Positions 12,397-60,008 of a DNA stretch of 64,000 bases are shown piece by piece; the first letter of the stretch is position 1, and every line of letters starts with the position of its first letter. Both the position numbers and the translations under genes were made by a program. The stretch is from an uncultured Flavobacteriaceae bacterium (GTDB taxonomy: Bacteria; Pseudomonadota; Alphaproteobacteria; UBA8366; Aestuariispiraceae). The stretch covers positions 56,888 through 120,887 of the forward strand of contig CAYGSU010000004.1 in assembly GCA_964352715.1 (NCBI GenBank), given 5' to 3'. Below the pieces are notes generated by a model. That model did not search any database. It was not told the origin of the DNA and worked only from the letters and a program-made list of their open reading frames with translations.

Positions 12397-12483
12397 GCCC
12401 CTGTGGCGGAATTGGTAGACGCGACAGATTCAAAATCTGTTATCCTTACGGGTGTGCGAGTTCGAGTCTCGCTGGGGGCACCA
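12397..12483 (+). tRNA. tRNA-Leu (anticodon CAA)
   Basis: GCCCCTGTGGCGGAATTGGTAGACGCGACAGATTCAAAATCTGTTATCCTTACGGGTGTGCGAGTTCGAGTCTCGCTGGGGGCACCA. Hand-folded as a class II tRNA with a long variable arm, T-loop TTCGAGT and encoded CCA. Confidence 0.9.
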
Positions 12484-12588
12484 TATTTTCCATATAGTTA
12501 GCGGTTTTGAGTCTCATGAGCGAAAAGCTTGATTGAGCCGTGTATGGCATATGTATGGCACGGTGTTTCTTCGTTAGGTCTAGTAGGT

Positions 12589-12850
12589 TTATAAGAGCTT
12601 TCCGGCTGCGTTATTCGTGAATAGTTCACCCGAACGAACGTAACGGGCCAGCATGGCATCTGACTGGTGACCAGTTTGCTGTCTAATGGCAATAGTGCTC
12701 ATGAGATGCTCCCTGTTTTTGGACCACCCAGCTGGATGATTTTCCGGGGTTATGGCTCATGCGGTTGAATGTCAGTATGAACCGGATAGCATGGCTACTG
12801 AAGGGTTGTTGCAGATTGCGCGGTGAGGGCGACCCACATTGCAGTGTCCA
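12589..12850 (-). pseudogene. tyrosine recombinase/integrase C-terminal relic (frameshifted and truncated)
   Basis: Own translation 12702->12589: MSTIAIRQQTGHQSDAMLARYVRSGELFTNNAAGKLL*, which resembles the integrase C-terminus GH-S--M---Y-R with the catalytic Tyr. An upstream fragment in another frame reads PFSSHAIR (HxLR-like box). No intact N-terminal domain is present. Confidence 0.5.
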
Positions 12851-13009
12851 GGCCGCCATCTTTTCGCTTGCTTTCGCAAGTATCAGGGACCAGTGCGCAT
12901 TCTGACGTTGCGGCTTGGCCGGGAAGATCGTGCTGCCAGGAACATTTCCCCGGGAACGCTGCTGCCTTCGTGTTCGATTTCTCTCACCGAGATTGCCCGT
13001 CAGGTATAC

Positions 13010-14326
13010 TTACCCCTCAAGATATCGTCTCCTCTCAGCATTGCTGACTTCCCGAGCAAGACTTTTGCTTTCAACCGTGCAAGTTTTTGCGAAGTGGTCG
13101 ACGAAAGTGTCGCCAAAGATACGGCGAGCATCGACACTGTTCTTTAAACGCTCAGCCGCATCCAGGAGATCGCGGGGGAAAGGTATGACCCCCTCTGCGA
13201 TGTCGTCTGGCCCCCCCGTTTCAGCCGGCGGTACGGCTTCCAATTCACGTTCAATGCCATCCAGGCCCGCTCCCAGCATTAAAGCAAGTGTTAGGTGGGG
13301 GTTGCAATCAGCCCCGGGGACTCGGAACTCAAGCCGAGCGCTGTCATTGTCTCCGGGAGATGAACGCACTGCGGTGGTGAATGTCCATTCTGCCCAGTTC
13401 AGCGATTTCGGAGCCCATGACCCAGGTGCGAAGCGCCGATATGCATTAACAGTGCTTGCACACATCGCAAAGGCATGCGGTACAATTTCAGACATGCCCG
13501 CGATAAAGTTCTTTGCCAGCGCATTGGTTGCACCCGATGGGTCCCGGAACAGATTTTGCCCTGTTCCTGCGTCAACTAGGGATAAATTGATATGTCCCCC
13601 TATTCCGGAATAGCCCGCACCAAGCAGAGGCATGAAGCTTGCCATCATCCCGCATCGACGCGCATAGGCGCGCGTTGCCAGACGGCAAAAGGCGGCGTCA
13701 TCTGCTGAGCGAATTCCGGGCGTCTTGCCAAGCGTTATTTCGAAGCAGCCAGGACCCAACTCTCCCGCAACAGCGAATAGCGCTATATCCATATCAAGGA
13801 TGGCTCGCTCCAGCCCGGTTACAAATTCAGATTGCTCTGCTGCGGTTTGGCCGGACCAGCATTTGTTTTCAGGCACAAACTGCGCTGGTTCCTTAAAATT
13901 GGATGCCCGCATGCTCTCGGGTGTTTCTGTCAGAACTATGGTCTCGAACTCGAAAGCCGATTCCACTTTGAAGCCCATCTTTGCCGCTCGGTCGACTTGA
14001 GCTTTGAGGATACGGCGAGGCATCAGATCCCCCGAGGCGCCAATGTAGTCAGCAATGACTGCTGCAGCGTTCTCCTCAAATCCGTATTTGCGCAGTGAAT
14101 CTCCGTCAACCTCAACTTCTTCACTCAGATACGGCCCATCCCCAAACAGAACTTCGCCCGCATCCCAGTATGGCAAGACATTGGGGAACCTGGGAGCTGC
14201 AGCCCATGCTGCGAACTGATCGAGACGCAATCGTCGTTCACGAAAGGCGCCGGCATAATCGAATTGCCCGACATGAACAGTCTCGACTTTTGCGTCCTTG
14301 AGGGTCTGGGTGATATTGGAATTCAT
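13010..14326 (-). CDS. glutamine synthetase-family ligase (GmaS/PuuA-like gamma-glutamyl-amine synthetase candidate)
   Basis: Start ATG 14326 with GGAGGT 8 nt upstream. GS catalytic-domain motifs YSGIGGHINLSL and RLEFRVPGADCNPHLTLALMLGAGLDGI. Confidence 0.75.
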   Translation of the reverse strand: MNSNITQTLKDAKVETVHVGQFDYAGAFRERRLRLDQFAAWAAAPRFPNVLPYWDAGEVLFGDGPYLSEEVEVDGDSLRKYGFEENAAAVIADYIGASGDLMPRRILKAQVDRAAKMGFKVESAFEFETIVLTETPESMRASNFKEPAQFVPENKCWSGQTAAEQSEFVTGLERAILDMDIALFAVAGELGPGCFEITLGKTPGIRSADDAAFCRLATRAYARRCGMMASFMPLLGAGYSGIGGHINLSLVDAGTGQNLFRDPSGATNALAKNFIAGMSEIVPHAFAMCASTVNAYRRFAPGSWAPKSLNWAEWTFTTAVRSSPGDNDSARLEFRVPGADCNPHLTLALMLGAGLDGIERELEAVPPAETGGPDDIAEGVIPFPRDLLDAAERLKNSVDARRIFGDTFVDHFAKTCTVESKSLAREVSNAERRRYLEG

Positions 14327-14570
14327 TACTGTCTTTACCTCCGAAGCAGATACCAATAGAGACAACTTGTAGTATGGCGGTGCGAGCAATCGCCCGGATC
14401 GAGTCGAACCTTCCCGTCGAGGCCGTCACTACGTTTTTGCGTGAATGTGCAGGTTGATACATAGGCCGGCGAAAACTCTTCTCATGAACGGGAGTATAAT
14501 GCGCCCTAGTCAGAACATACGACGCTGTAGCTGCCTCATTCACAACCCGGACCTTATCGCCTTCCAAACG

Positions 14571-15710
14571 CTATCTCTGCTCCGCAGGGGTAGCCTCCTC
14601 CAAGATTGAGCGAACGTTCGTCTTTACCCTTTCACCTTTCGGATCGTAGAAGCGGTAACTTTTCGCAACGTGAAGATCGACCAAACCGTTTTCGGATTCG
14701 ATATGCAGCAATGTACCCTCATCGGCGAAGTCTACTTTGACCCAGCCGCGGCCGAGGTTTCGCTTCAACACGGGGCTGTTCCATCCAATAGTCGTTTCAC
14801 CGACCTGCTCGCCGTTGTGGAGGATCTTCTGACCCGCTGACAATGCTGTTTCGGCGTTTCTTACTTCGAAACCGACGAGTTTGGTTCTAAGACCGGCTTC
14901 TCTCCGCCTAAGCATTTCATCGCGGCCGAAGAAATCTCCCTTGTCGAAAGCGACGGACCAGCCTAAGCCGTATTCGAGCGGCGTGCCGCCGCTATAGAAA
15001 TCATCGCCAAACAAAAGGCCCGTATCCGTAGAGATGGGAAAAGCCGTCATTAATCCGTACGGACCGCCTCCGTACTCGGCGCAATGATTCGTGAACAAGT
15101 CCCACATTCCCTGCGAGAATTCCGGGGCGAAATGAACTTCATACCCCAGTTCTCCGGAGAACCCGACCCTGGCGATGATAACCGGTACTCCGGCAAGATC
15201 AGCATGGATCAGTCGGTTCCGTCCTAGATCAGCGATATCGACGACCTTCTGAAGAACATGCGCCGACTTGGGCCCCTGTATCGATAGAAATGTATTCGAC
15301 AGGTCCGTGATCCAGGCACTCAGACCTTCAGATTTTTCAAGTAGCCAGTTCCTGCAAGCAACTCTGGCAATGCCGCCATGAATAATGAATCGGTCTTCCG
15401 CCAACCAGAAAACAATGACATCATCTATCAGTTTTGCATGGCTATCCAGAATGCTGGAATAGATCGTGGCACCAGGCGTGATCTTGTTGAGATCCGCTAC
15501 AAGGACGCTTTGGAGGAGCTTGAAAGCGTCGGATCCGCAAACGCCGAAACATCCCTGGAAATGATATTCTGAGAATCCAACCCGCTCGCGAATCATCAAG
15601 TATTCGTTGTCAGTGGAGTCGATGCCCCCTGCGACTTGCCAACCACGAACATCAATAAATCGAGCACCCAATTGCGCATAAATGTGATGGAAGGGGGTTC
15701 TCATTTCCAT
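14571..15710 (-). CDS. GcvT-family aminomethyltransferase-like protein (stand-alone, folate-dependent demethylase candidate)
   Basis: 379 aa. It has the GcvT signature-like RVGFSGELGYEVHF (compare E. coli GcvT TGYTGEAGYE) and a C-terminal barrel domain. Confidence 0.8.
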   Translation of the reverse strand: MEMRTPFHHIYAQLGARFIDVRGWQVAGGIDSTDNEYLMIRERVGFSEYHFQGCFGVCGSDAFKLLQSVLVADLNKITPGATIYSSILDSHAKLIDDVIVFWLAEDRFIIHGGIARVACRNWLLEKSEGLSAWITDLSNTFLSIQGPKSAHVLQKVVDIADLGRNRLIHADLAGVPVIIARVGFSGELGYEVHFAPEFSQGMWDLFTNHCAEYGGGPYGLMTAFPISTDTGLLFGDDFYSGGTPLEYGLGWSVAFDKGDFFGRDEMLRRREAGLRTKLVGFEVRNAETALSAGQKILHNGEQVGETTIGWNSPVLKRNLGRGWVKVDFADEGTLLHIESENGLVDLHVAKSYRFYDPKGERVKTNVRSILEEATPAEQR

Positions 15711-15828
15711 AGATCTGCTCCGTTGGTTTCACTACGGGGTTTCTTCATCACGCAATCGTCCTGGGGTGCTTTCGTTTGCGTATTGTGGATGTGCGTTTTC
15801 TTGGGCGGTCAAGTTAATGCCAAGAATC

Positions 15829-15844
15829 AGCAAAAGCCGTGCCA
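15829..15844 (-). promoter_or_regulatory. sigma54 (-24/-12) promoter for the GcvT-like/GS-like operon
   Basis: The minus strand reads TGGCACGGCTTTTGCT, with exactly 10 nt between GG and GC. It lies about 120 nt upstream of ATG 15710. Confidence 0.8.
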
Positions 15845-15953
15845 GATAAGCGGGTTCAGCTAGTGCCTTGTTTTTGAATGCATATAGATGATGGCGATGA
15901 AGGTACGGTGATAAAGCGGCGGGCCTACAAGGCATAAGTGCGGTGTCGCCAAT

Positions 15954-15965
15954 TGCAAATTTGCA
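15954..15965. promoter_or_regulatory. 12-bp perfect palindrome TGCAAATTTGCA, candidate enhancer (UAS) for the island EBP
   Basis: It lies about 110-120 bp upstream of the 15829-15844 promoter. Its core GCAAATTTGC recurs upstream of the tdm-like promoter (23372-23381). Confidence 0.6.
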
Positions 15966-16323
15966 CAGTCAGTTCACACCGGAACCGTGGATCGTGTTAT
16001 TGAAGCTCCCAATGAAGCTATTCTCCCACGGTCTGCCGGGGTCGACACAGAGGGCCTCCCCCGATGCCGCGGTTTATGTCCGTTGCGGTGAACCGGCCGG
16101 ATATCTTATTGGTATGCTGAAAATTGCAGGCCGGACGCCTGTCCAAGGCCGCTCGCAACACCGAACGATCCCGTAGCCAACACCGACCACTGCAAGGCTG
16201 TCTGCAAGCCCGGCCAGAACGCTGCCGACCCCCGGCAAGAGGCAGACGATCGCCAGCAGCTGGCAGAACCGGGCGCCCAGACTTCAGGTTACTTCGTTTC
16301 AGAAAGCACCATGGCCATGGCGT

Positions 16324-18384
16324 TCACTTCAGCCCCAAAGCCGCCTTACGCCTGTTCGCCCAGGTCCGGATGATCTGATCTGCGGTAAGTGAGATAAAGG
16401 CGACGCAGAGGCCGAGCGTGATCCCTGTGCCCGTACCCTGCGGTTCGGCAATCGCCTTCAAGATGAGCTGGCCGAGATCGATGGTGCCGATAAACGCGCC
16501 GATGATCACCATCATGAGGGCGAAGTTCACCGTCTGATTGACACCCAGCATGATATGGGGGAATGCGATTGGCAGATCGATCGAAACCAGTCGTTGCCAG
16601 CGCGAAACGCCGCACATCGATCCGGCATCCTGCAGAACAGGTGGCACACTCCTGAGTCCTTCAACGGTGAAGCGTATCGCAGGGACGATTGCATAAACCA
16701 GCGACGCGATCAGCACGGAGGTGTCGGTGATGCCGAACAGCATCATTACCGGGATAAGGTAGATGAACGAGGGGAACGTCTGAAAGAAGTCACACAGAAG
16801 CAGAACGCCTTTGCTGGCATTCGAACTTTGCGCGCAGATCGCCCCAATCACGAAGCCGAGGACTCCGGAGACGATAACCGCGAACGTGGCCATGTACATG
16901 GTAATCAGCGCACGATCCCAGTATTCGGAAAGCGCGATGAACAGAAGAAACCCGCCGACGATCAACGCCGAACGCAGCCCGGCGAGAATATAAGCCACCC
17001 CCATGACAAGGACAAAGGTCGCGACGACCGGCATTGCGAGATAGGAATCGCGCATCGGCACCAGGACGCTGACAATCAGCCATTCGTTGAATGCCTTCAG
17101 CGCGAAGAAAAAGGTATCCCAGATCCAGTCGACACCGGCCTGCCAGAACGGCGCCGTCGTCAGCCCCTTGTTTTGTGGTACGATGTAAAAGTAGTTGAAT
17201 CCTTCCTCGAAGATGAAGGAGCCGATATAGGCAAGTACCGTGCCGGCTGCAAATATCGCCAGACAGATAATCAGCGGGCGATGACGCTCGGCAAATGAAA
17301 GATCGGCAAAGTAGTCGGTCGGCTTGTTCGCCCAGGCGAGCGACATCTTGTCGAACAACACGGCGATCAGCACGATGCAGATGCCGATCTCGAGGCCGGT
17401 GCCGATCTTCAGCGAATTCAGCGCGATCAACAGGTTGGAGCCCAGTCCCTGGGCGCCGATGAACGACGCGATGACGGTCATTGACAGACACTGCATGACG
17501 GCCTGATTGACACCGATCAGAACGTCGCGCTTGGCCGTTGGAATAAGTACCCGGAACAGCATTTGAAACTCGTTGCAGCCGCTCATCTTGCCGGCGTCGA
17601 CGACGTCGTCCGGAACGTTCTTGAGCCCAAGCAACGTCAACCGCACCATCGACGGCGTGGCAAAGAGGATCGTCACCAGGACTGCGGCATGGTCGCCAAC
17701 GCCAAACAGCACAATGATCGGCACCAGATACGAATAGTGCGGCATCGTCTGCGCGACATTGAGCAGTGGGTTGATGATCCATTCCGCGATCAATCCCTTG
17801 TAGGCCAGCACGCCAACCGTCAGCCCGAGGAAAACCGAGACAGGCCCGGCAATCAGAATAAAAGACAGCGTCTGCATCGATGGCGACCATTGCCCGAATA
17901 CGGCGATGTAAAGACTGGCGATGCAGGCGAGGATCGCCAGACCCCAGCCCTGAAGCCTGTAGCCAAGAACCATCGCCCAGCCGGTAACAACCGTCCAGGG
18001 CAATGCAGGCCAATGAGCCCACGGATTGTCGCGGATGAAATCCCAGCTTGTGATGGCGGCGATGGTCTTTTGTCCGCCCAGAATGAGCTCGCGGACCGCA
18101 TCGATAATAAACAGGAAGATGCCGGCAATTCCTCGGGAAATCTCGCGGAACAAGGGTTTCTGCTCATACTCCTCGATTGTCGGGTCGTAGACCTCGATCG
18201 GCAACCACTCGAACATCAAGCCGCGCACGAAATCGTTTATCAGACCCGGAATGCTCTTCAGCAGCGGGGGCAACCGCCAAAGATAGTTGTCATCTGCAGG
18301 TTGGATAAAGGCGCATAGCAAGACAAACACGACCAATAGGATCGCGAACTGCATCAGTTTCAAATATAGCGATGACTGCGGCAT
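16324..18384 (-). CDS. tmoV: fused double-domain ABC permease of the glycine betaine/choline family (TmoV-like)
   Basis: About 686 aa and highly hydrophobic, with two tandem permease halves. The likely start is ATG 18384; the track start at 18429 is TTG. Confidence 0.7.
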   Translation of the reverse strand: MPQSSLYLKLMQFAILLVVFVLLCAFIQPADDNYLWRLPPLLKSIPGLINDFVRGLMFEWLPIEVYDPTIEEYEQKPLFREISRGIAGIFLFIIDAVRELILGGQKTIAAITSWDFIRDNPWAHWPALPWTVVTGWAMVLGYRLQGWGLAILACIASLYIAVFGQWSPSMQTLSFILIAGPVSVFLGLTVGVLAYKGLIAEWIINPLLNVAQTMPHYSYLVPIIVLFGVGDHAAVLVTILFATPSMVRLTLLGLKNVPDDVVDAGKMSGCNEFQMLFRVLIPTAKRDVLIGVNQAVMQCLSMTVIASFIGAQGLGSNLLIALNSLKIGTGLEIGICIVLIAVLFDKMSLAWANKPTDYFADLSFAERHRPLIICLAIFAAGTVLAYIGSFIFEEGFNYFYIVPQNKGLTTAPFWQAGVDWIWDTFFFALKAFNEWLIVSVLVPMRDSYLAMPVVATFVLVMGVAYILAGLRSALIVGGFLLFIALSEYWDRALITMYMATFAVIVSGVLGFVIGAICAQSSNASKGVLLLCDFFQTFPSFIYLIPVMMLFGITDTSVLIASLVYAIVPAIRFTVEGLRSVPPVLQDAGSMCGVSRWQRLVSIDLPIAFPHIMLGVNQTVNFALMMVIIGAFIGTIDLGQLILKAIAEPQGTGTGITLGLCVAFISLTADQIIRTWANRRKAALGLK

Positions 18385-18406
18385 GGTCGCCGTACCTGCT
18401 TCGTTG

Positions 18407-19465
18407 TTACGCGTTAACGCTCCGGCCAAACAGAACCTTGATTACATGCGAGGCGTGCAGACTGCCGACGAGATTGTTGTTCTCATCGACGACGCCGACC
18501 GCCTTATCCGCACCAAGGATCTGTTCCGCGACGGTTTCAATGATGGCATCCCTGGAAACTCTTATCTCGCTAAGTTCTTCGGACGGATTCAAGGCGTCCA
18601 TAACCGATTCGATCCTGAGTACCTTTTCCCGTGGCACATCCTGGGTGAATTTTCGGACGTATTCGGTTGCAGGATTCAGAACGATTTTCGACGGCGTATC
18701 GAGCTGTTCGATTATCCCGTCCTTCATGATCGCGATGCGGTCGGCGAGACGCAAAGCTTCGTCGAAATCGTGGGTGACAAACAGGATCGTTTTCCTGAGC
18801 GTCGCCTGAAGCCGCATGAACTCATCCTGCATCTCCTTGCGGATCAGAGGGTCGAGGGCTGAAAACGGCTCGTCAAGGAACCAGATGTCGGGTTCGACGG
18901 CGAGCGACCGGGCTATGCCGACCCGCTGCTGCTGTCCGCCTGAAAGTTCGCGTGGGAAGTAGTTTTCGCGGCCCTGAAGACCAACGAGCTGAGCCATTTG
19001 CCGCGCCCGTTCGACGCTTTCCTTGGTCGTCAGGCCCTTGACCTGCAGTGGAAACGCAATGTTCTCCAGAACCGTCTTGTGCGGCAGCAAGCCGAAGTTC
19101 TGAAAAACCATACCCATCTTGCTGCGCCGGATATCAATGAGTTGCTTGCCGGTCATCGCCGTAAGGTCATGGCCTTCAATGAAGATCTTGCCGCCGGTCG
19201 GGTCGGTCAAGCGCGTGATGCAGCGCAACAGGGTAGATTTGCCGGAGCCCGAAAGCCCCATGATGACCAGAATCTCTCCGGAATGGACATCGAACGTTAC
19301 GTTGTTTACGCCGACGATGCACCCGGCGCCCTTCGCGGTGTCAACATCGATGAAGCCGCTACTTCTTCCAAGCAGGCTCTCGGCGTTCTTGCCAAAAATC
19401 TTGTAGACAGCCTCGCACCTGATGACGGGCTGTTTCCCTTCTGATGAAATCTTCTGAGAAGACAT
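18407..19465 (-). CDS. tmoW: ABC transporter ATPase of the ProV/OpuAA type with a C-terminal CBS-like region (TmoW-like)
   Basis: Walker A GLSGSGKST, signature LSGGQQQRVGIAR and Walker B IWFLDEPFSALD. Confidence 0.8.
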   Translation of the reverse strand: MSSQKISSEGKQPVIRCEAVYKIFGKNAESLLGRSSGFIDVDTAKGAGCIVGVNNVTFDVHSGEILVIMGLSGSGKSTLLRCITRLTDPTGGKIFIEGHDLTAMTGKQLIDIRRSKMGMVFQNFGLLPHKTVLENIAFPLQVKGLTTKESVERARQMAQLVGLQGRENYFPRELSGGQQQRVGIARSLAVEPDIWFLDEPFSALDPLIRKEMQDEFMRLQATLRKTILFVTHDFDEALRLADRIAIMKDGIIEQLDTPSKIVLNPATEYVRKFTQDVPREKVLRIESVMDALNPSEELSEIRVSRDAIIETVAEQILGADKAVGVVDENNNLVGSLHASHVIKVLFGRSVNA

Positions 19466-19585
19466 GGCGTGCCCCCGATCAAAATCCCGTTCTAGGCGAC
19501 CGGTTAACGGTCAGGCTCGCATTGCGAGAAATCCGAGTCAATGTTCGACTTCCGGGTCAAACGAAATCCGATCCGAAAAGAAGAG

Positions 19586-19615
19586 CGGTTCCCCTCAAAA
19601 TCTTGAGGGGAACCG
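19586..19615 (-). terminator. intra-operon hairpin after the binding-protein gene (attenuator or mRNA stabiliser)
   Basis: Perfect 13-bp stem CGGTTCCCCTCAA / TTGAGGGGAACCG with a 4-nt loop. On the minus strand it is followed by CTCTTCTTTTCGG. Confidence 0.5.
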
Positions 19616-19636
19616 GGGTTGAATTCGACAGATGGC

Positions 19637-20620
19637 TTAATTGCTGTCGCCCAGAACCGAGATCGTCCAGGGCTTCCAGACTTCCTCGTTGTCGGCCAGC
19701 CACTTCTTCGCCGCCTCTTCGTGCGTCATTTTTTCAGTGTCAACGAGAGCCGCCATTTCGCCGATCTGCTGCGTGTTGAACGCCAGCTGGGTGAAGGCCC
19801 TGTAAGCATTTGGATGGGACTTCGGCAACTTCCAGTGGGCAGCCTTCTTCAGCCAGCCCTTGGGCGAGCCGCAGCCCGTGGTGTCCATGGTGCCGCCGTC
19901 GGCAAGACGGCAGCCATCGAAATACGGCGGGAAGTCGATGAAAGTGAAGCCTGTCGCATCGGTAAAGTTCGGCGTCCAGTTGAAGATAATCGTGCCACGG
20001 CCTTCCTTCTTGGCCGCTTCTAGTTCGGCCCACAGCGCGTCGGCGCCGCCGCCAAACTTGACGGTCCACAAGTCATCGAGCCCGAGACCCTTGACGCGGT
20101 CCGGCATGGTATCGCCGTGCCAGCTTTGCGGTCCTTCGAGCCAGCGCCCCTTGCCGCCTGAGTCAGGCGTCACGAAGTTTTTCACACAATCGGGGTTCTT
20201 CAGGGCCTCCCAGTTCGGCAATCCCGGGCACAGATTCTGCTCTATTACCCAGTTTGGCACACCCATTTCTTCAAGGGTAACAGCGGGATGGGAACCGGCG
20301 TCGATCAACCCGCCCTTTTCCATGGCATTGTAGAAGGAGTTCTGCATTGTCGACTGCCAGACTTCGTGCGTAATCGAGAGGTCGCCGGTGCGAACGGCCT
20401 CGAAACTGGCCTGAATCTCGACCGGAACATATTCGACATTGTTGCCCATGCTCTCGAAGATGTTGCCGATGACGTAAGCCATGACGATCTGGCTCGACCA
20501 ACTGTGGATCGGAATTTTAATCGGTTCGCTGCTGTCGGCAGCAGATGCATTCGCGCCGAATGCGGCAACGCCGCCCAGCAATGCCAAGGCTGCAATGGCA
20601 TTCTTTATAGTGGATTTCAT
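19637..20620 (-). CDS. tmoX: periplasmic substrate-binding protein, glycine betaine/quaternary-amine family (TmoX-like)
   Basis: Start ATG 20620 with GGGAGA upstream. Signal peptide MKSTIKNAIAALALLGGVAAFGANASA. Trp-rich mature protein typical of OpuAC-type binders. Confidence 0.7.
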   Translation of the reverse strand: MKSTIKNAIAALALLGGVAAFGANASAADSSEPIKIPIHSWSSQIVMAYVIGNIFESMGNNVEYVPVEIQASFEAVRTGDLSITHEVWQSTMQNSFYNAMEKGGLIDAGSHPAVTLEEMGVPNWVIEQNLCPGLPNWEALKNPDCVKNFVTPDSGGKGRWLEGPQSWHGDTMPDRVKGLGLDDLWTVKFGGGADALWAELEAAKKEGRGTIIFNWTPNFTDATGFTFIDFPPYFDGCRLADGGTMDTTGCGSPKGWLKKAAHWKLPKSHPNAYRAFTQLAFNTQQIGEMAALVDTEKMTHEEAAKKWLADNEEVWKPWTISVLGDSN

Positions 20621-20840
20621 TTCTCGTCTCCCTGTTGAGTGGTAATAAACCCTGAACATACAATTGAGAAAACTGATCGACTTACCTCCCCGAAAGACCC
20701 CGCCTCGATCATCCCAGACGTGATCCAACTGCTTCCTCGGCGCCTTGCTTTTTTTTGTTGGAGCACTGCCAAGGCGCCAGGGCAGTACTTCCGTGTCAAA
20801 CTGTAGCTCACCTCACCCATGTCACACTCGCGGGCACCGA

Positions 20841-23177
20841 CTAGGACCGCACCCGAGTTCTCTCCGGGTCGTAGAACGGTAGCGATGTAACCGTGGCGGG
20901 GAGTCTTCTTTGGTGTCCGTCCAGTTTTCCGACCTCTACTTCGGTCCCGGGACCGGAAAACTCCGTCGTGAGACGCGCCATCGCTATGCTCTTCTTCAGA
21001 ATTGGAGATCGGGTGGCGCTTGTAACGATACCGATCTTTGCGCGACCTACGTAGACGCCGTCTCCGTGTCCGACCAGTTCGTTGCCGGTAAACTCAAGGC
21101 CGACCAGTTGCCTTTGGGGGGCATTCATCCGCTTCTCTATTGCATGCTTGCCAACGAAATCTTCGTCCTTTTTGCGGTCGATCACGAAGCCGATTCCCGC
21201 CTCGCAGGGATCCGTCTGATCGTCGAATTCGTGACCGGCAAAAACCAATCCGGCTTCGATACGCAGCATGTCCAGTGCCGCCATGCCCATGGGCGTCAGA
21301 CCGTGGTCTTTGCCAGCCTCCATCAACGCATCCCAAACAACGACCGCGTCCTTGGGATGGCACCAGACTTCATACCCCAACTCGCCCGTATAACCTGTTC
21401 GGGAAACAATCGCGATTGGTCCGTTGAAATCTCCGACGCGTCCGACGACAAAGCGGAACCGCTTTAGATCTCCCACGGATGTTGCACCCTCCGGAGTCCA
21501 GATTGCGGACGCCACGATGTCACGGCTATTGGGCCCTTGTATGGCGAGGTTGTGAAGTTGATCCGTGGCGGTTTTTACATGGACTCTCAGATCCGATGCC
21601 TCTGCCTTTTCACGCAACCAGATGCCTCCGAGATCATTGCCTCCAATCCATCTGAAATTGTTGGCTCCAAACTTGAACAGCGTCCCGTCGTCGATCATGC
21701 CGCCACTTTCGTAACACAGTGCGGTATAACCTACTTGGCCGTCCGACATGCGACGGACATCACGGGGCAGTGTACGCTGCAACAGTTCTTCGGCGTCAGG
21801 ACCGAGAACCTCATATTTTCTCAATGGCGACAGGTCCATGATCGTCGCTTTTTCCCGGCAAGCGTAGTACTCCTTCACAGCACCGAGATTGTTGAACGCG
21901 TTAGGGACCCAGAACCCGTTATACTCGGAAAAGTTCTTCGTAATAGCAGAGGTCCGGGAATGAAATGCTGTCTCTTGGGTCAACTGGGTATCTGAATCAG
22001 GTGTCATGCGATAGCCTATTGCTCTGGAGATTTTGTTTTGTGCCGGGTAAACCCGCACATGAATATCCGTGGGGTTCCATCCGTTCGTCGGGTTGACTTC
22101 GTCGGGGCACGCTGAGGAACTACAGACTAGAGATTTACTTGCGCGCACGAGTACATAGTCGCCTGGACGGGTCCACGGCTCGTCGACGTAAAACTGCAGA
22201 TCGTCCGTGAAGCCCGTGTTCGAAAACAAATTGATGGCCGGCCAACCTGGGCGAGGCGTTACTCCATATGGTGCAAGAACGGCATTCATATTGTCCGTGC
22301 AGTTCACATGGCCCGGGTATCCGATATCCTCATAGCCACGTGCGTTGCATGCGAATGCAAAGGTATCGTGACGCCCGACAGTATCTCGCACGACTTCCAG
22401 AAGAGGCTGCAAATCTGGATCGAGGAACTTCGAATGGAGGCCCGGCCCAGGATACGCAGAACCAATATGTGTACGAGTGGCGGTTGAATCGAACGTGCGT
22501 TCAACGCCTTGCTGAAGCTGCTTCGCGTCAAAGACCAAGAGGTCAGAGCACTGACGACCCGATACATCGATGATCTGGATATATTCCCCCTCTTCCACTT
22601 CGTATGCTTGCGCAGTACGACGATCAATACGAATATCCAATCGCGGTTCGGCGAGCGGCGCAGGAAGAGGTGTGTCTTCGTTATTTCGTCTCCGAGCCCG
22701 TTCTATTGTTAGCTCTAGAGCCGTTGGCGGGGTTTGCTGATCCGGCTCCATAGCCTTGCCTGGCGCGGCTACGATACAGGTTACACTCCGCTCCGCGACA
22801 AATGACTGACTACTGCCTGGGCGTGACGTTCCCCCCATGACCTCGGCCGCCTTCAAGTTCTGCGGATCAACGCCCAGACGACTCAATTCGGCGAGAACAG
22901 GCTGGGCCGCTACGCCGGCATTGCGCAATGTGTCGCACAGCCCTGTGATGGTTTTATCGTTCTTGACGGACAATGCGGCGGCGTCGTCTCGGCCGGATGC
23001 ATCAAGAACTGCAATCTCCGCTGTTTGCCCCCCTTCCGGGTCTCGTACCGAAATTCTATCGCCCGCTTCAACCGAAACCCAAATGACGCCTGATCCCGGA
23101 ACCCTGTAGCGCTCCATCGACGGCGCGAGCCGCGAAAAGCCGTATTCAATCGATCTTGGTCTGCTAATGAGATTCAT
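20841..23177 (-). CDS. tdm: DUF1989-GcvT fusion protein, trimethylamine-N-oxide demethylase (Tdm)-like
   Basis: Start ATG 23177 (MNLISRPRSIEYG) with GAGGGAG upstream; the longer track ORF would begin upstream of the sigma54 promoter. The middle region is DUF1989-like (YIQIIDVSGRQCSDLLVFD...). The C-terminal half is GcvT-like with SRTGYTGELGYEVW. Confidence 0.7.
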   Translation of the reverse strand: MNLISRPRSIEYGFSRLAPSMERYRVPGSGVIWVSVEAGDRISVRDPEGGQTAEIAVLDASGRDDAAALSVKNDKTITGLCDTLRNAGVAAQPVLAELSRLGVDPQNLKAAEVMGGTSRPGSSQSFVAERSVTCIVAAPGKAMEPDQQTPPTALELTIERARRRNNEDTPLPAPLAEPRLDIRIDRRTAQAYEVEEGEYIQIIDVSGRQCSDLLVFDAKQLQQGVERTFDSTATRTHIGSAYPGPGLHSKFLDPDLQPLLEVVRDTVGRHDTFAFACNARGYEDIGYPGHVNCTDNMNAVLAPYGVTPRPGWPAINLFSNTGFTDDLQFYVDEPWTRPGDYVLVRASKSLVCSSSACPDEVNPTNGWNPTDIHVRVYPAQNKISRAIGYRMTPDSDTQLTQETAFHSRTSAITKNFSEYNGFWVPNAFNNLGAVKEYYACREKATIMDLSPLRKYEVLGPDAEELLQRTLPRDVRRMSDGQVGYTALCYESGGMIDDGTLFKFGANNFRWIGGNDLGGIWLREKAEASDLRVHVKTATDQLHNLAIQGPNSRDIVASAIWTPEGATSVGDLKRFRFVVGRVGDFNGPIAIVSRTGYTGELGYEVWCHPKDAVVVWDALMEAGKDHGLTPMGMAALDMLRIEAGLVFAGHEFDDQTDPCEAGIGFVIDRKKDEDFVGKHAIEKRMNAPQRQLVGLEFTGNELVGHGDGVYVGRAKIGIVTSATRSPILKKSIAMARLTTEFSGPGTEVEVGKLDGHQRRLPATVTSLPFYDPERTRVRS

Positions 23178-23277
23178 CCGTATCTCCCTCGAAACATATG
23201 CCTCGCGTTGTAGACATTCCCGGAGTCGCGTATTTGTAGGATGCCGATAGCAACACAAACCTTCTTGGCCAAAAATC

Positions 23278-23293
23278 TGCAATTGACATGCCA
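23278..23293 (-). promoter_or_regulatory. sigma54 (-24/-12) promoter for the tdm-like gene
   Basis: The minus strand reads TGGCATGTCAATTGCA, with exactly 10 nt between GG and GC. It lies about 100 nt upstream of ATG 23177. Confidence 0.8.
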
Positions 23294-23352
23294 AAAGAAC
23301 TTTTTCTCGGAACGTGGCGCAGACTCGGCGCTCCAGCGACCGGCGTCACGCT

Positions 23353-23395
23353 CTGCAATGTGATAGTATAGGCAAATTTGCATATTTTATTGCAG
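23353..23395. promoter_or_regulatory. nested inverted repeats, candidate enhancer for the island EBP
   Basis: CTGCAAT (23353-23359) ... GCAAATTTGC (23372-23381) ... ATTGCAG (23389-23395), lying 60-115 bp upstream of the -24/-12 element. Confidence 0.55.
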
Positions 23396-24161
23396 TTTTG
23401 AGCACATGAAATCTCGCGCCCTCTGTCGTTCAACCCAAGTATGGCGGGGATCGGACCGCTTCGTTTCCTCTGTCATCGGGTCGGGCGCAGGCACATTTTC
23501 CCAATCCATGCTGCCTCACATGCCGGATGCAATCAGCCCATTGCGGGGATCCTTCGCAGCAACCCGACATCCCGCGCAACTATGATGAATTCGTGGACTA
23601 TGCTGCCGGCGCTGTCTTTGCAGACAGTTCGACCCTGTCCTAGAATACGGAGGAACGACAACGGGCAGCGTACTGTCGAACAACAACAGGCAGTGTGCTG
23701 ACGGAGAGAAACGCACACCTCCCGTGGCCTGCTCCCGTTGCCGAGAACCCGGAAATCGAATTCGTGCAACAACATCCCAATCCAAAGGAACTGAGGCATT
23801 GCCGGCACGATCACGGCTTATGGTGCCTGCACGAGGGCACTTCAACCAACCGCTATGTGCTGGATAGTCTCGGCATGAGATTTGCTTGTATAGTCAGGAA
23901 ATCGCGGTCTTTGGCAGGCTAGAATGGATAGTGGCTTATTGGCATTTACTTCCGGATTGTTCTTCGTTTCCGCCAGTTCGATTTGTTGACAGTCAGGGGG
24001 GTCTCACTTTGGAAGCCTCAGCAGAGTGCAAATCTAGACTCTGGGCTGGAAATCGATTGCGGTTTCGATCCCGCCATGTGAAAGACCGGAGCCCGGTCGT
24101 TTTATGTCAAATTGAGTAATAAATCAGCGGTGCGTGAACCCTAAGAGGAGTATGAAGCAGC

Positions 24162-25361
24162 ATGAAGAGCAAGAGCCCAGGATCTGCTGCACTCGAGACG
24201 ATCATCTTCGACGAAAAATTGCGAATACTGGATGAGGCACCTACCCTCATTGATGCCTTCGATTCAAATGGCACATTGTATTTCTGCAATGATCGGCAAG
24301 CCCAGATGTTGGGATACCAGCCTGCAAGCCTTGTCGGCGAATCGATGTCTCGTATCTATACTCAAAGCTCGACAGAAGCCCTGCTGGAGGCAATCGAGGG
24401 AGGCAATTCAGAAAACGCGCTACCGCTGGATCTGGATTTACGGTGTTCGAACGGATCGACGATTTCAGTGATTGGTGACTGGGAAGCCGTCCACTCTGAC
24501 ACAGGGCAACCACTCTATATTGTATCGAAGTTGTTCAGCCAAGGGCGCCGTCGAAGTGACCTTGCTGAAGAGAACGAGATACTGCAATGCTATTCAGACC
24601 TCTCCAAAGATGCCTTTTGGTGCATCGAGTTTGACGAACCGATAGATATTCAATTGCCCCGTCAAGAGATTGTACGGCAGGTCTTTGAAAACCGAAGCCA
24701 CTGGCGTCTATGTAACGCGGCGATTTCCGAAATGTACGGACTACCGACCGGCTTGAGCATCGAATCCAGCCCCGTTTCCGCATTCTTTCAGCGTCGGCCG
24801 GCAAACGAGCGGTTCATCCACCAGTTGCTTGATGCAAACCTCTCTCTAAATGGCGTGGCCGCGATCGACATACACTCTGACAATACACCAATGCTGATCG
24901 AGAATGATGTGCGCGGGCATGTAGTTCACGGTCAACTGAAGAGACTAGTGGGAATCGTAAGGAAAGTTCCAAAGGAACGCTATATCGAGAGATATCTCTC
25001 AGATCGTCTGGACGTGACGCTAGACATATTGAACGCCCTGCCGGATCCGGTCGGTATACTGGATCGCGACGGCCGATTTTTAGCAATCAATCCGGTGCTT
25101 GCACACCTTATAGAGACCCCACCCGTAACCGAGGGACTGAAGTTGCAAGACATCGTGGAGTGGCGAACTGATCGGCACACGTCCGGTCGTCTTGATTGGC
25201 CAATTTTGAAAGCGCCCTTTGTAGAAACTGTCCAATTAAGATTGGAAGGCCAGGCTCCTCGGTACTGCCAAATGTATGTGAATGCAACAGCATGTAACGA
25301 CTTGGAAGACTGCTTCATCGTCATGTTCAGGGAGAGCATGTCAAAGGAGACGGCGAAATGA
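24162..25361 (+). CDS. multi-PAS sensor protein without an output domain
   Basis: 399 aa with about three PAS-like modules (e.g. LDEAPTLIDAFDSNGTLYFCNDRQAQMLGY and ILNALPDPVGILDRDGRFLAINPV). AAGAGGAG lies upstream. The stop overlaps the next start (ATGA). Confidence 0.65.
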   Translation: MKSKSPGSAALETIIFDEKLRILDEAPTLIDAFDSNGTLYFCNDRQAQMLGYQPASLVGESMSRIYTQSSTEALLEAIEGGNSENALPLDLDLRCSNGSTISVIGDWEAVHSDTGQPLYIVSKLFSQGRRRSDLAEENEILQCYSDLSKDAFWCIEFDEPIDIQLPRQEIVRQVFENRSHWRLCNAAISEMYGLPTGLSIESSPVSAFFQRRPANERFIHQLLDANLSLNGVAAIDIHSDNTPMLIENDVRGHVVHGQLKRLVGIVRKVPKERYIERYLSDRLDVTLDILNALPDPVGILDRDGRFLAINPVLAHLIETPPVTEGLKLQDIVEWRTDRHTSGRLDWPILKAPFVETVQLRLEGQAPRYCQMYVNATACNDLEDCFIVMFRESMSKETAK

Positions 25362-26794
25362 TTCTCTCGAAACCAAGTTCTGACTCGTCACAGGCATCAG
25401 ACGAAGCTGATGGCATGGCCGTTCTAACTCAACAGCCATCTTTCCAGAATTTCATCGAGAGCCTTCCCGACGGTGTGACCATTTTGCAAGGCGACGGGAA
25501 GATTTTGAGCATGAATCGAGTGGCGGGCCAGATGAACGGCCTGCCGACCGAATCTATTGTGGGCAACTCTATTGCGGATCTTGTTGCAGCGTCACGGCTC
25601 AACTTGGATCCGGTTCTATCGTCTTTTTACGATCGCCGTCGTATCACCCATGTAAGCCGCACACCTGACGGTACAAGTGTTATGACGTGCCTTGGTGGAG
25701 TGCTCGACGACGAGCGTAGTTTCAAGTTCTCGTTCGTTGTGCAACGTGACCTTGATGTTATTGACGAACAGCGTTCACAAGACAGCCAAGGCGGCCTCAA
25801 CAGACTTCGCAACCGAGAATTCAAGAAACGCGGCGAGAACGAGCTAGCGAACTGGCCGATTTCAGAAAGGATGCGCCGCGCTATTGAGACTGCAAGTCGC
25901 GGGCTTTCAATGAATGAGCCCGTGATTATCACGGGAGAGACAGGGGCTGGGAAGACGTTTGTAGCCCGAAGAGTTCACCAGTTGCTGGAAGCCAGAACGG
26001 GCCCATTCATTCAGGTTAGTTGTGGCAGTATTCCGTCGAGCTTGTTCGAATCTGAGTTCTTTGGTTACGAGCGAGGATCATTCACCGGCGCGTTGAGTCG
26101 TGGGCGAGGCGGATTTGCCGAGGCGGCGCATGGCGGCACCATGTTCCTTGACGAGATCGGAGAAGTGCCACTCGAAGATCAAGCTAAATTGCTTCGTTTC
26201 ATCGAAGATCGGGTAGTGAACCGCATTGGTTCACAACAGGACCGAAAAGTTGATGTGCGAATCATCGCGGCCACTAATCGAGACCTTCCGGCAATGATCA
26301 AAGCGGGCAATTTTCGTTCAGATCTCTTCTATCGCCTAAGTGTCATCAATTTGCCGTTGGCACCATTGCGTGAGCAGAAGGATTTCGTTGGCCAGTTGAT
26401 TGATTTCTATTTCGATCATATGTCAATCAAGACAGGACAAGAAATCAGGATCAGCGACGAGGATCGAGACCTGCTATTGAACTATGAATTCCCCGGCAAC
26501 GTCCGGGAACTCGTCAATATCATCAAGCAGTATTCAATTCTTTTTGGAACTGACAACCAACGGTCGATTGCTTCTTGCTTGCAACCAATGACGCGTTCTG
26601 AAGAAACGGAACAGACATTTCTGACATACGTTCCGCCGCCACATATACGAACTCTGCGCGATCAGGTCGCGTCCTATGAAAGGGCATTGATCACGCACGC
26701 GGTTGCGACGCTGGGCAGCCAACGCAAGGCTGCGGATTTTCTAGAGGTTGATATCAGTACGCTTGGGCGAAAACTCCATCGTCAGGAGAAATAA
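25358..26794 (+). CDS. sigma54-dependent transcriptional activator (PAS - AAA+ - Fis-type HTH)
   Basis: Walker A GETGAGKT, sigma54-contact loop ESEFFGYERGSFTGA (a GAFTGA variant), Walker B GGTMFLDEIGE and C-terminal HTH QRKAADFLEVDISTLGRKL. Confidence 0.85.
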   Translation: MILSKPSSDSSQASDEADGMAVLTQQPSFQNFIESLPDGVTILQGDGKILSMNRVAGQMNGLPTESIVGNSIADLVAASRLNLDPVLSSFYDRRRITHVSRTPDGTSVMTCLGGVLDDERSFKFSFVVQRDLDVIDEQRSQDSQGGLNRLRNREFKKRGENELANWPISERMRRAIETASRGLSMNEPVIITGETGAGKTFVARRVHQLLEARTGPFIQVSCGSIPSSLFESEFFGYERGSFTGALSRGRGGFAEAAHGGTMFLDEIGEVPLEDQAKLLRFIEDRVVNRIGSQQDRKVDVRIIAATNRDLPAMIKAGNFRSDLFYRLSVINLPLAPLREQKDFVGQLIDFYFDHMSIKTGQEIRISDEDRDLLLNYEFPGNVRELVNIIKQYSILFGTDNQRSIASCLQPMTRSEETEQTFLTYVPPPHIRTLRDQVASYERALITHAVATLGSQRKAADFLEVDISTLGRKLHRQEK

Positions 26795-26913
26795 GGGTCG
26801 CCCGATACTCCGGCGGCACCGGAGATTTTCATCCGCATGGATGACAAAAGGTCAACGCACCAACAATCAAACCGGACCGGTCGCAGGGGCAGGTCAAGAA
26901 GTGGAGGTAAGCA

Positions 26914-27270
26914 ATGGAAAGGTCAGTGATCAACGTCGAAGAAGCCGATTGGAAGACCTATAGTCTGCAAGGTCGTCCACAAGAAGACATCTCATGGCAC
27001 AACATCAGCTGGTCAGACGCGGATGACACAGGGTTTTTCCTCCTGAAGTTCAAGCCCGGCGGCGAATCGATCGCGCACGAACATCTCGGTTTCGAGGAGT
27101 TCATTGTCCTCAAAGGTGAACTCATTGATCATGACGGGTATGTTTATCGGCAAGGCGACTGTGTTTCGCTGTCTGCCGGTTCCAGGCATTTCACCCGTTC
27201 AGAGCAGGAAACGATTGTCGGCGTGTTCGTTAGAGGAGGCTTTCGGACAATCAGTAAAGTAGCGTTGTAA
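26914..27270 (+). CDS. cupin-domain protein (ChrR-like cupin)
   Basis: 118 aa. Cupin motifs GESIAHEHLGFEEFIVLKGEL and GDCVSLSAGSRH. Confidence 0.6.
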   Translation: MERSVINVEEADWKTYSLQGRPQEDISWHNISWSDADDTGFFLLKFKPGGESIAHEHLGFEEFIVLKGELIDHDGYVYRQGDCVSLSAGSRHFTRSEQETIVGVFVRGGFRTISKVAL

Positions 27271-27348
27271 GCTAATTTTGACGCACGGTGAGAGGCCGGC
27301 CACGTGAGTGGGACCATGCGATGCATGAGCAGGAAACGGATAGCCTAG

Positions 27349-27384
27349 TTCAATACCTGTTATCCTTACCGGTGTGCGAGTCCG
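27349..27384 (+). repeat. degenerate direct copy of the tRNA-Leu 3' half (att-like scar)
   Basis: Hand alignment of 27349-27384 against tRNA positions 12429-12464 (anticodon loop to T-stem) gives 32 of 36 identical, in the same orientation. The last 19 nt of the tRNA are not copied. Confidence 0.65.
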
Positions 27385-28091
27385 CACTCTCAAGCGACCG
27401 CCATCCGGCATCGCATGAATGGCGTTGACCAACAGGTTGACAAGAATCTGTTGCAGTTCGGTCCGATTCATCGCGATCTGCCTGTTTGCCGCATCGTCGC
27501 GCTCGACGGATATGTCACCCTTCTGAAGCAGATGTTTGACCAAAGGCAGGTAATCGGAAACGACGTCCTGTGGCTTGTGGCTCGCCACGTAGTCCGCATA
27601 TTCCTCAGGCTTCGCGAATTGCTGCAGTTTGGTGACGATGATGTTGATCCGGTGAATCTGTTCGTCAAGCAGCGTAAGTTCGGTGTCGACCGATTCAGCC
27701 CTGTCGCCAATACTGCTGCGAAGAACGTCAAGGTTGCCCTGCATCACTGCAATGGGATTGTTGATTTCGTGGGCGACACCGGCAGTGAACTCGCCGATCG
27801 CGGCGAGCTTCTCCGACATGATCAACTGCTTCGTCGTCGCTTCAAGTTGCAGATTTGCCTGCTTTAGTTCGCGCGTACATTCGTCAACCCGTTTGTCCAG
27901 TTCGTCGTTCAAGTCGCGAAGCTGCCGATCTCGGCGTCGGATGCAACGATACCGGTGCGTGCGCTCAGATCGCCGCCTTCTATCCGATAGGTGCGGTTGC
28001 CCTTTTGCGATTGGAGAACATCTGCACGGTCCATGGCGGACCAAAACCTGTACGAATCAAATTTCTGAATGAAGACTGTTGAAGGTCGCAT
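27385..28091 (-). pseudogene. histidine kinase relic (HAMP end + HisKA + start of HATPase; frameshifted, both ends missing)
   Basis: HisKA FTAGVAHEINNPIAVMQGNL and N-box LVNLLVNAIHAMPDGGRL, after which the frame runs into the tRNA-like scar. The HAMP-like IEGGDLSARTGIVASDAEIGS sits in a different frame (shift near 27925). No TM or sensor region and no G1/G2 boxes. Confidence 0.65.
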
Positions 28092-28987: not shown

Positions 28988-29137
28988 GCGTGGCTCCTCA
29001 GGTGAGTGCTGAATATAGTGTGTACCGATTTTACAAAAACTCAAAGTATGCAGGAATATTATTCCTTAGGGAGAAAAATTTTCTTCTTTTACAATGCCAT
29101 CGCCTATCAGGACAATAATCCACAGGGAGACCAGAAA

Positions 29138-30688: not shown

Positions 30689-30730
30689 CCGGGAAATTCC
30701 TGACCTTGCAACCGTCCCTGTGACTGTTCC

Positions 30731-30760
30731 GGGGGGCATCTTCGGATGCCCCCGTTTTTT
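30731..30760 (+). terminator. rho-independent terminator
   Basis: GGGGGCATC-TTCG-GATGCCCCC followed by GTTTTTT. Confidence 0.85.
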
Positions 30761-30806
30761 CCCGGATGGGTGTTGCTGTAAACTTCAAAACTGACGGAGC
30801 AATATT

Positions 30807-59210: not shown

Positions 59211-59230
59211 TCGAACGAAGAGAGAAGACG

Positions 59231-60007: not shown

Positions 60008-60008
60008 G

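Follow-up and report, generated by a model that had tools for sequence, protein, structure and literature searches.

A GcvT-like protein and a glutamine synthetase-like protein form a predicted sigma54-dependent unit of a trimethylamine N-oxide island and may stand in for DmmD and GmaS

We analyzed a 64-kb stretch of alphaproteobacterial DNA (the window; 64,000 nucleotides [nt] of contig CAYGSU010000004.1 in assembly GCA_964352715.1, positions 56,888 to 120,887, Aestuariispiraceae) and focused on two neighboring minus-strand genes that encode a stand-alone GcvT-like protein and a glutamine synthetase (GS)-like protein. The pair lies in a horizontally acquired island of ~14.9 kb at tRNA-Leu(CAA), which also holds the genes for trimethylamine N-oxide (TMAO) use and their regulators. 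We favor, tentatively and with a probability of about 0.42, the reading that the pair joins amine capture by gamma-glutamylation to the capture of one-carbon (C1) units on folate, with an oxidizing partner acting in trans. This would be a non-orthologous replacement of the roles of gamma-glutamylmethylamide synthetase (GmaS) and DmmD, and it is the most economical account of the pair. The reading starts from the clade-level identities of the two genes, their promoter, a palindrome shared with the TMAO genes, and the island boundaries, from which we infer the substrates and the division of labor between the two proteins. The features of the pair are as follows, where GS438 is the name that we use here for a large, uncharacterized clade of alphaproteobacterial GS-like proteins.

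13010-14326, minus strand: GS-like protein of the GS438 clade, 438 amino acids (aa), candidate gamma-glutamyl-amine ligase (Pfam Gln-synt_C, 228 bits)
14327-14570, minus strand: spacer between the two genes, 244 nt
14571-15710, minus strand: stand-alone GcvT-family protein, 379 aa, candidate tetrahydrofolate (THF)-dependent C1 acceptor (GCV_T, 143.9 bits; GCV_T_C, 49.5 bits)
15829-15844, minus strand: sigma54 -24/-12 promoter of the GcvT-like/GS operon, exact match TGGCACggcttTTGCT
15954-15965, no strand assigned: perfect upstream activator palindrome, a putative activator site, TGCAAATTTGCA

We propose that the pair is the second transcription unit of a self-contained TMAO-utilization island, and that a PAS-domain protein and a sigma54 enhancer-binding protein encoded in the island most likely activate both sigma54 units together via TGCAAATTTGCA. 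GS438 would use ATP and glutamate to gamma-glutamylate amines that arise downstream of the TMAO demethylase Tdm (monomethylamine and possibly dimethylamine), doing the job of GmaS without being GmaS. The GcvT-like protein would load formaldehyde-level C1 units onto THF and fill the role of DmmD without being DmmD. Because the usual oxidizing partners of both families are absent from the island, the host would have to provide the oxidant in trans (Dmm or a DAO flavoprotein, for instance), or the GcvT-like protein would instead mop up formaldehyde released by Tdm. Each gene would have been parted from the usual partner of its relatives, and both would then have been joined under a regulator and an operator inherited from GS438-type modules. 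Since each gene is cut off from its usual partner, the joint job of the pair may be new.

The original prediction described a 379-aa GcvT-family gene and a GS-family gene, 244 nt apart, as an operon with its own sigma54 promoter. Both genes were found at the predicted coordinates, and the promoter is the exact match TGGCACggcttTTGCT. No other site in the 64 kb matches TGGCAC-N5-TTGCW exactly, and this one lies 118 nt upstream of the ATG of the GcvT-like gene. The GS gene starts at the ATG at 14326, has a GGAGG 11 nt upstream, and is supported by an independent gene call. A promoter with -24 GG and -12 GC elements at a suitable distance, an upstream site, a cognate activator, and an rpoN gene in the window (38623-40167) together predict a sigma54 operon in which the two genes are probably cotranscribed. 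The 244-nt gap, which had been singled out as unexplained, has the length originally given, and nothing special emerged from scans of it: there was no Rfam hit at the gathering threshold and no coding-strand terminator or sigma70 match, and the fold z-score was +1.29, i.e., no stable fold. We therefore rejected an RNA element in the spacer.

The tdm transcription unit carries a second promoter and a second copy of the palindrome, and the two regulatory genes are encoded upstream of tdm on the opposite strand (24162-26794).

23278-23293, minus strand: sigma54 promoter of tdm-tmoXVW, TGGCATgtcaaTTGCA, which precedes the called tdm start (23177) by 100 nt
23371-23382, no strand assigned: second copy of the palindrome, one mismatch, GGCAAATTTGCA
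24162-25361, plus strand: PAS-domain partner protein, 399 aa (PAS-family Pfam matches)
25358-26794, plus strand: sigma54 enhancer-binding protein (PAS-AAA+-HTH), 478 aa (Sigma54_activat, 205 bits; HTH_50)

The two palindrome copies, TGCAAATTTGCA and GGCAAATTTGCA, are the only matches in the window at one mismatch or fewer, and shuffled sequences gave a mean of 0.07 matches, with 1 of 60 shuffles reaching two. Their centers lie 115.5 nt (GcvT-like/GS) and 83.5 nt (tdm) upstream of the respective promoters. The same arrangement occurs in two unrelated loci where GS438 genes accompany a cytochrome P450 gene (P450/GS modules). An Ensifer locus (L005) has the identical 12-mer between two divergent sigma54 promoters, and a second locus (L012) has a one-mismatch copy 104 nt upstream of a sigma54 promoter; palindrome-to-promoter distances in these loci range from 104 to 132 nt. 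The TMAO island also shares its pair of regulators with the P450/GS modules, with 33 to 39% identity for the activator and 28 to 33% for the PAS partner. Because the palindrome is common to both units, and because loci with homologous regulators have the same layout, a single regulon for the tdm unit and the pair, as originally predicted from the palindrome, is well supported by the sequence.

The GcvT-like protein has the hallmarks of a functional member of its family. Its catalytic Asp aligns with D96 of Thermotoga maritima GcvT, the GELGYE motif is present, and all residues that are invariant in its clade alignment are kept. Its scores lie below the NCBIfam cutoffs for glycine-cleavage T proteins (TIGR00528, 176.2 versus 235.85 bits; NF001567, 183.4 versus 300 bits), and on these cutoffs we rejected a true T protein of glycine cleavage. 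It also scores below the cutoffs of the Tdm and SoxA models. In a neighbor-joining (NJ) tree, it belongs to a monophyletic clade of T-like proteins linked to DAO-family oxidoreductases, with 63 to 66% identity to Mesorhizobium and Phyllobacterium members and 38 to 46% to members from Chloroflexota and Pseudomonadota. The clade is rare: 48 proteins (P0121 to P0168) at 36% identity or higher among 5.8 billion.

A DAO-family flavin adenine dinucleotide (FAD) oxidoreductase gene adjoins the GcvT-like gene in all seven other loci of the clade that were examined (L008, L009/L014, L015, L016, L017, L096, and L097). The partner is MSOX/MTOX-like in Mesorhizobium sophorae (two loci), Mesorhizobium amorphae, and Phyllobacterium zundukense. 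It is ThiO-like in two Chloroflexota and in a Pseudomonadota metagenome-assembled genome (MAG), where electron transfer flavoprotein (ETF) genes accompany it. ETF genes also occur in L008, one of the two M. sophorae loci, and in the Phyllobacterium locus (L014), which holds FolD, PurU, and malyl-CoA (serine-cycle) genes as well. These DAO and T-like pairs are a split version of the fused DAO-GcvT dehydrogenases, with the T-like protein as the predicted THF-dependent C1 acceptor in flavin-dependent N-demethylation. Since every other locus examined has an adjacent DAO gene, the window protein is more plausibly a C1 acceptor for an oxidase than a lone demethylase. The role of THF-dependent C1 acceptor fits because FAD amine oxidoreductases accompany the clade in every locus examined, in several cases along with ETF and in one also with FolD and PurU. 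That a T-like protein can be a stand-alone accessory of a methylated-amine pathway has a precedent in DmmD (PMC5520151).

There is no DAO gene adjacent to the GcvT-like gene of the window. We considered the only DAO gene of the window (57891-59210) as the missing partner and rejected it, as its product is only 23 to 25% identical to the partner DAO proteins and its neighbors are housekeeping genes. This gene, whose product is weakly N-methyltryptophan-oxidase-like, belongs to a stretch (57891-61342) that also holds pyrF and the alpha and beta subunits of nitrile hydratase, and no link to the island was found.

The Rhizobiales clusters with GcvT-like and DAO genes (L008, L016, L015, and L014) also encode a PuuA-like GS, FGase-family and isochorismatase-family hydrolases, an HsaA-like flavin monooxygenase with its reductase, a Liv-type ATP-binding cassette (ABC) transporter, and a GbdR-like AraC/DJ-1 regulator. 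These clusters look like pathways for the catabolism of some N-methylated compound. We also rejected the GS-like gene that lies close to the GcvT-like genes of Mesorhizobium, because its product is 28% identical and falls in a different, PuuA-like clade. In P. zundukense, a transposase-like insertion, an insertion sequence as judged from open reading frame (ORF) translations only, lies directly downstream of the GcvT-like gene (L014, 15122-17562) and may have displaced a neighbor.

The link to DAO genes bears on the idea, put forward in the original prediction, that the pair acts as a short circuit in which gamma-glutamylation is followed by folate-dependent demethylation. In the strict form of this idea, the two proteins alone would do so directly, and no oxidase would take part. 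The two genes are adjacent and share one promoter, and the unit encodes no other enzyme. DmdA and LigM, both of the GcvT family, move methyl groups to THF without an oxidase, which also counts in favor of this idea. The window protein scores far below the cutoffs for these enzymes, however, with 106 versus 410 bits for DmdA and 26 to 37 versus 580 to 800 bits for LigM/DesA. Its whole clade is linked to DAO genes, and on chemical grounds an N-methyl amide would be a poor, unactivated methyl donor. We consider a strict short circuit very unlikely. The wider claim of a self-contained route found no support either, given the clade, the lack of an oxidase in the island, a pairing seen in no other locus examined, and the loss of a catalytic arginine from GS438 (see below).

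The GS-like protein is a member of the GS438 clade. It is 55 to 74% identical to other members, has the TFT motif of the clade, and keeps every residue that is invariant across 19 aligned members (alignment A3). It scores below the cutoffs of the GmaS-type model TIGR03105, named in NCBIfam "type III glutamate--ammonia ligase" (166.3 versus 469.6 bits), the PuuA-type model (140 versus 650 bits), and the GlnA model (134 versus 429 bits). GS438 retains all six metal ligands as well as R321, R344, and R359, and its Glu327 flap position is occupied by a Trp, which a genuine GmaS also has there. Ligase activity is thus plausible, although not certain, from these residues and from the substitutions discussed below.

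To define the genomic context of GS438, we used 7 genome or plasmid loci and 31 metagenome loci, 25 of which had enough flanking sequence. A GS438 gene nearly always adjoins an oxygenase gene, usually a P450 gene (18 of the 25 well-flanked metagenome loci) and once one of the AlkB type. The clade members sit in gamma-glutamylation-type modules in which GATase/PuuD-like hydrolases and aldehyde dehydrogenases are frequent, and one relative is labeled "glutamate--isopropylamine ligase" by UniRef. The PAS/activator pair was within 6 kb in 12 of the 25 loci, and none of the 25 held a GcvT-like, Tdm, TmoX, DAO, or DmmC gene. Unlike its clade, the GS438 gene of the window has no oxygenase gene upstream and no second GS gene downstream.

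The module of oxygenase, GS438, second GS, GATase/PuuD-like hydrolases, and aldehyde dehydrogenase is widespread (L001, L002, L004, L005, L012, L095, and L098 to L128). It was found in Rhodobacterales, Hyphomicrobiales, and metagenomes, often with the PAS-partner/sigma54 activator pair and sigma54 promoters. We found no characterization of this module in the literature searched, and searches for IpuC, P450-coupled gamma-glutamylation, and sigma54 control of tdm returned nothing directly relevant.

These comparisons also address the simplest explanation, that the two genes are ordinary GmaS and DmmD orthologues and that the rest of the pathway is encoded elsewhere in the genome. The superfamilies are the same, as is the genomic theme, which recurs in canonical clusters such as those on plasmids of Rhizobium sp. 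CCGE532 and Paracoccus aminophilus. As the GmaS reference, we used glnT from the complete tmm-tdm-dmmDABC-glnT-mgs cluster of the Rhizobium plasmid. The window protein is only 24% identical to it (102 bits) and occupies a separate branch of the NJ tree, in line with its low TIGR03105 score. The GcvT-like protein is 25 to 26% identical to two DmmD proteins encoded beside dmmABC (P. aminophilus pAMI6 and Rhizobium sp. CCGE532). These two proteins are 63% identical to each other and 33 to 35% identical to the Tdm C-terminal domain, and they branch with the Tdm C-terminal domains, not with the GcvT-like protein. The sequences thus contradict orthology, and we regard this explanation as extremely unlikely. 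The original prediction had allowed for simple homologues, with the ligase inside characterized GmaS and the GcvT-like protein inside DmmD, and neither placement was recovered.

Several observations weigh against coupled gamma-glutamylation and folate capture by the pair, the reading that we favor. The combination of a GcvT-like gene with a GS438 gene was found in none of the 31 metagenome loci and none of the 7 other GS438 loci, and no other locus of the GcvT-like clade that we examined holds a GS438 gene. No oxidase is encoded in the island. A second GS-like gene is present in 22 of the 25 well-flanked metagenome loci (20 directly downstream and 2 nearby on the opposite strand) and in all other genome or plasmid loci of GS438 examined; these second proteins are longer than GS438 (GS495-528, 494 to 528 aa). 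In every aligned member of the GS438 clade, the NRS motif is changed to TFT (or a Tyr variant), which replaces Arg339 (numbered as in Escherichia coli GlnA) with Phe or Tyr (Phe in the window copy), and His271 is likewise replaced. Arg339 is a residue of phosphoryl transfer in GS, and it is kept by the neighboring GS495 paralogue, by GmaS, and by a PuuA-like protein. Because Arg339 is lost from GS438 while the accompanying second GS keeps it, GS438 may not be the catalytic ligase.

The loss of Arg339 also suits a regulatory role, in which GS438 would make or sense a gamma-glutamyl-amine inducer for the PAS partner and activator, and the GcvT-like protein would be an independent formaldehyde accessory. 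GS438, the PAS partner, and the activator are the only proteins shared by the TMAO island and the P450/GS modules, and the palindrome is common to the island and two of these modules (L005 and L012). A precedent for such sensing is Ruegeria pomeroyi TmaR, which senses a catabolite downstream of monomethylamine (PMC13390433). Some GS438 loci, however, lack the PAS/activator pair within the 10-kb flank examined, such as those of Roseovarius (L002) and Paracoccus TOH (L095), and the Roseovarius locus instead has AsnC/LysR regulators and no sigma54 promoter. The retention of all metal ligands is also as expected of an enzyme, and we judge the regulatory role to be quite unlikely.

A different division of labor would make the pair part of an undescribed route around DmmABC, MgsABC, and MgdABCD for dimethylamine and/or monomethylamine derived from TMAO. 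GS438 would form gamma-glutamyl-(di)methylamide, an oxidase acting in trans would attack the N-methyl group, and the GcvT-like protein would take up the C1 unit as methylene-THF and leave glutamine. Oxidation would fall to a flavoprotein or oxygenase of the host, or one of the island proteins would have an unexpected activity of this kind. Both families are otherwise tied to oxidizing partners (P450 or AlkB type for GS438, DAO for the GcvT-like clade), and both M. sophorae copies of the GcvT-like/DAO genes lie within a few kilobases of a different GS-like ligase and amidohydrolases. A self-contained mobile island also suggests that its genes act together. The island lacks an oxidase, though, and the Mesorhizobium GS-like protein belongs to a different clade at 28% identity. 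The R339F change makes ligase activity doubtful, the pairing is confined to a single lineage, and we know of no GS-like enzyme that accepts a secondary amine. On balance, we think that such a bypass is unlikely.

The remaining genes of the island identify it as a TMAO locus.

12397-12483, plus strand: tRNA-Leu(CAA), integration site and left island edge (ARAGORN, Rfam)
16324-18384, minus strand: fused double permease, TmoW-like (two BPD_transp_1 stretches; gene call of 686 aa)
18407-19465, minus strand: ABC ATPase, TmoV-like (TIGR01186 proV subfamily, 339.6 bits versus a cutoff of 326.6)
19637-20620, minus strand: TMAO-binding protein, TmoX-like (Pfam OpuAC; 273 bits to PDB 4xz6)
20841-23177, minus strand: TMAO demethylase Tdm with DUF1989 and GcvT domains (NF053776 equivalog, 1143.3 bits versus a cutoff of 1100)
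27357-27384, plus strand: partial direct repeat of tRNA-Leu positions 41 to 68 (26 of 28 bases), likely right island edge

On the minus strand, the order is tdm, a 67-aa ORF, the gene for the TmoX-like binding protein, the ABC ATPase gene, the fused permease gene, a 613-nt noncoding stretch, the GcvT-like gene, the spacer, and the GS-like gene. The Tdm-like enzyme had been predicted for this locus, and its score passes the equivalog cutoff; it also scores 845 bits to the solved Tdm structure 9q59. The binding protein matches 4xz6, which we take to be the R. pomeroyi TmoX-TMAO complex, and its scores to other betaine-binding proteins do not exceed 28 bits. Because Tdm passes its cutoff and matches 9q59 and the binding protein matches 4xz6, the locus is best read as a unit for TMAO uptake and demethylation. 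The 67-aa ORF (20617-20820, minus strand) has no Pfam match and lies between tdm and tmoX in the second copy of the island (see below) as well. An unusually long noncoding stretch (~980 nt, 23178-24161) separates tdm from the divergently oriented PAS gene, and the sigma54 promoter and the palindrome were the only features identified in it.

The absence of dmmABC, mgs, and mgd, which the original prediction noted for the island, also stood for the whole window. No dmmABC, P450, ETF, or second GS gene was found in the 64 kb by Pfam scans of most of the larger ORFs and by tblastn of the whole window with reference proteins, and tblastn with DmmA, DmmB, and DmmC queries found nothing. For mgs and mgd, the absence from the 64 kb comes from Pfam scans of the larger ORFs alone, as the tblastn set held no Mgs or Mgd queries.

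The island comprises eight substantial genes (GS438, GcvT-like, tmoW, tmoV, tmoX, tdm, PAS partner, and activator) and the 67-aa ORF. The tRNA-Leu(CAA) gene abuts the GS gene, and the GC content is 0.50 to 0.58 inside the island versus 0.58 to 0.63 in the flanks. A sister MAG (L130) with the same flanking synteny has a different element, with a serine recombinase and TraG, at the same tRNA. We saw no integrase gene in the island (12397-27384). A second copy of the island is present on a 14.4-kb Logan contig from the same lineage. Outside this lineage, we did not find the GcvT-like/GS438 pairing in the 5.8-billion-protein collection, in one scan each of GTDB representative genomes and JGI metagenome contigs, or among PLSDB plasmids. 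Because the eight genes travel together, the pair probably contributes to the TMAO phenotype. At the island edge, the partial repeat of the tRNA falls within a 281-aa ORF (27199-28044, minus strand) that has HisKA and no HATPase_c and may be a truncated histidine kinase. Immediately beyond the island, at 28091-31841, there is a gene for a regulator of the LysR type, one for a solute-binding protein of family 5, and one for a protein with an amidinotransferase fold (arginine deiminase/DDAH-like).

The mobility and the lower GC content of the island are also consistent with a patchwork, in which the two genes are passengers from the recombination of a P450/GS module with an N-methyl dehydrogenase module and have an inherited promoter and no joint function. 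Such an origin would account for the unique pairing and for the lack, beside each gene, of its otherwise conserved partner. Both ORFs are intact, however, and all clade-invariant residues are kept; a good ribosome-binding site precedes the GS gene, and the unit has a perfect-consensus promoter and a perfect palindrome. The spacers also hold no remnants of other genes. We used blastx to look for remnants of P450-module or DAO genes in the 244-nt spacer, in both promoter regions, and in the 530 nt that follow the GS gene; no match was better than E = 0.1, and we rejected such remnants on this basis. A patchwork of passengers appears improbable to us.

For the cycling of nitrogen and C1 compounds in the sea and in soil, the fate of dimethylamine in bacteria that have tdm and lack dmmDABC is an open question (PMC5520151). 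If the gamma-glutamyl bypass were true, it would provide one answer to this "dimethylamine bottleneck" in tdm-positive, dmm-negative bacteria. If the pair merely duplicates the roles of GmaS and DmmD, it would be a modest case of non-orthologous replacement. A transferable 15-kb unit that combines Tdm with the uptake of TMAO, a sigma54 regulator of its own, and only two further enzymes would also be a compact test bed for pathway extension. Moreover, the analysis exposed a widespread and apparently uncharacterized amine-catabolic module, which is often under a PAS-partner/sigma54 activator that has a defined palindromic site, and a GS-like clade that lacks the canonical catalytic arginine.

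The pair resembles several known systems and departs from each. Like GmaS, the GS-like protein belongs to the GS superfamily, has the metal ligands and the Trp at the Glu327 position, is encoded in a methylated-amine locus, and has the same predicted chemistry. It differs in its low identity (24%), its clade, the change of Arg339 to Phe, and the lack of adjacent mgsABC and mgdABCD. DmmD is likewise a stand-alone protein of ~377 aa with GCV_T and GCV_T_C domains, comes from TMAO and methylamine loci, and is a probable THF-dependent formaldehyde acceptor (PMC5520151). It groups with the Tdm C-terminal domain, whereas the window protein groups with DAO-linked proteins and has no adjacent dmmABC. 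The split DAO and T-like amine dehydrogenases, in whose clade the GcvT-like protein falls, are two-gene counterparts of the fused dimethylglycine and sarcosine dehydrogenases and SoxA; beside the window gene, the DAO gene (and ETF) is missing and a GS-like gene is present instead. Gamma-glutamylation-dependent amine oxygenation is known from the Ipu isopropylamine pathway, from aniline dioxygenase with its GS-like component, and from the Puu pathway. The relatives of GS438 are similarly found with oxygenases, hydrolases, and aldehyde dehydrogenases, a likeness of gene context, and the window copy differs in that none of these genes, and no second GS gene, lies beside it. Canonical Tdm/TmoXVW clusters are under the AraC-type regulator TmaR (PMC13390433). 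The island has no tmm, dmm, gmaS, mgs, or mgd. It shares with these clusters Tdm, a TmoX-like binding protein, an ATPase, and a permease, but these are carried on a small tRNA-linked island that is predicted to be regulated through sigma54, the PAS partner with its activator, and a palindrome upstream of the promoters.

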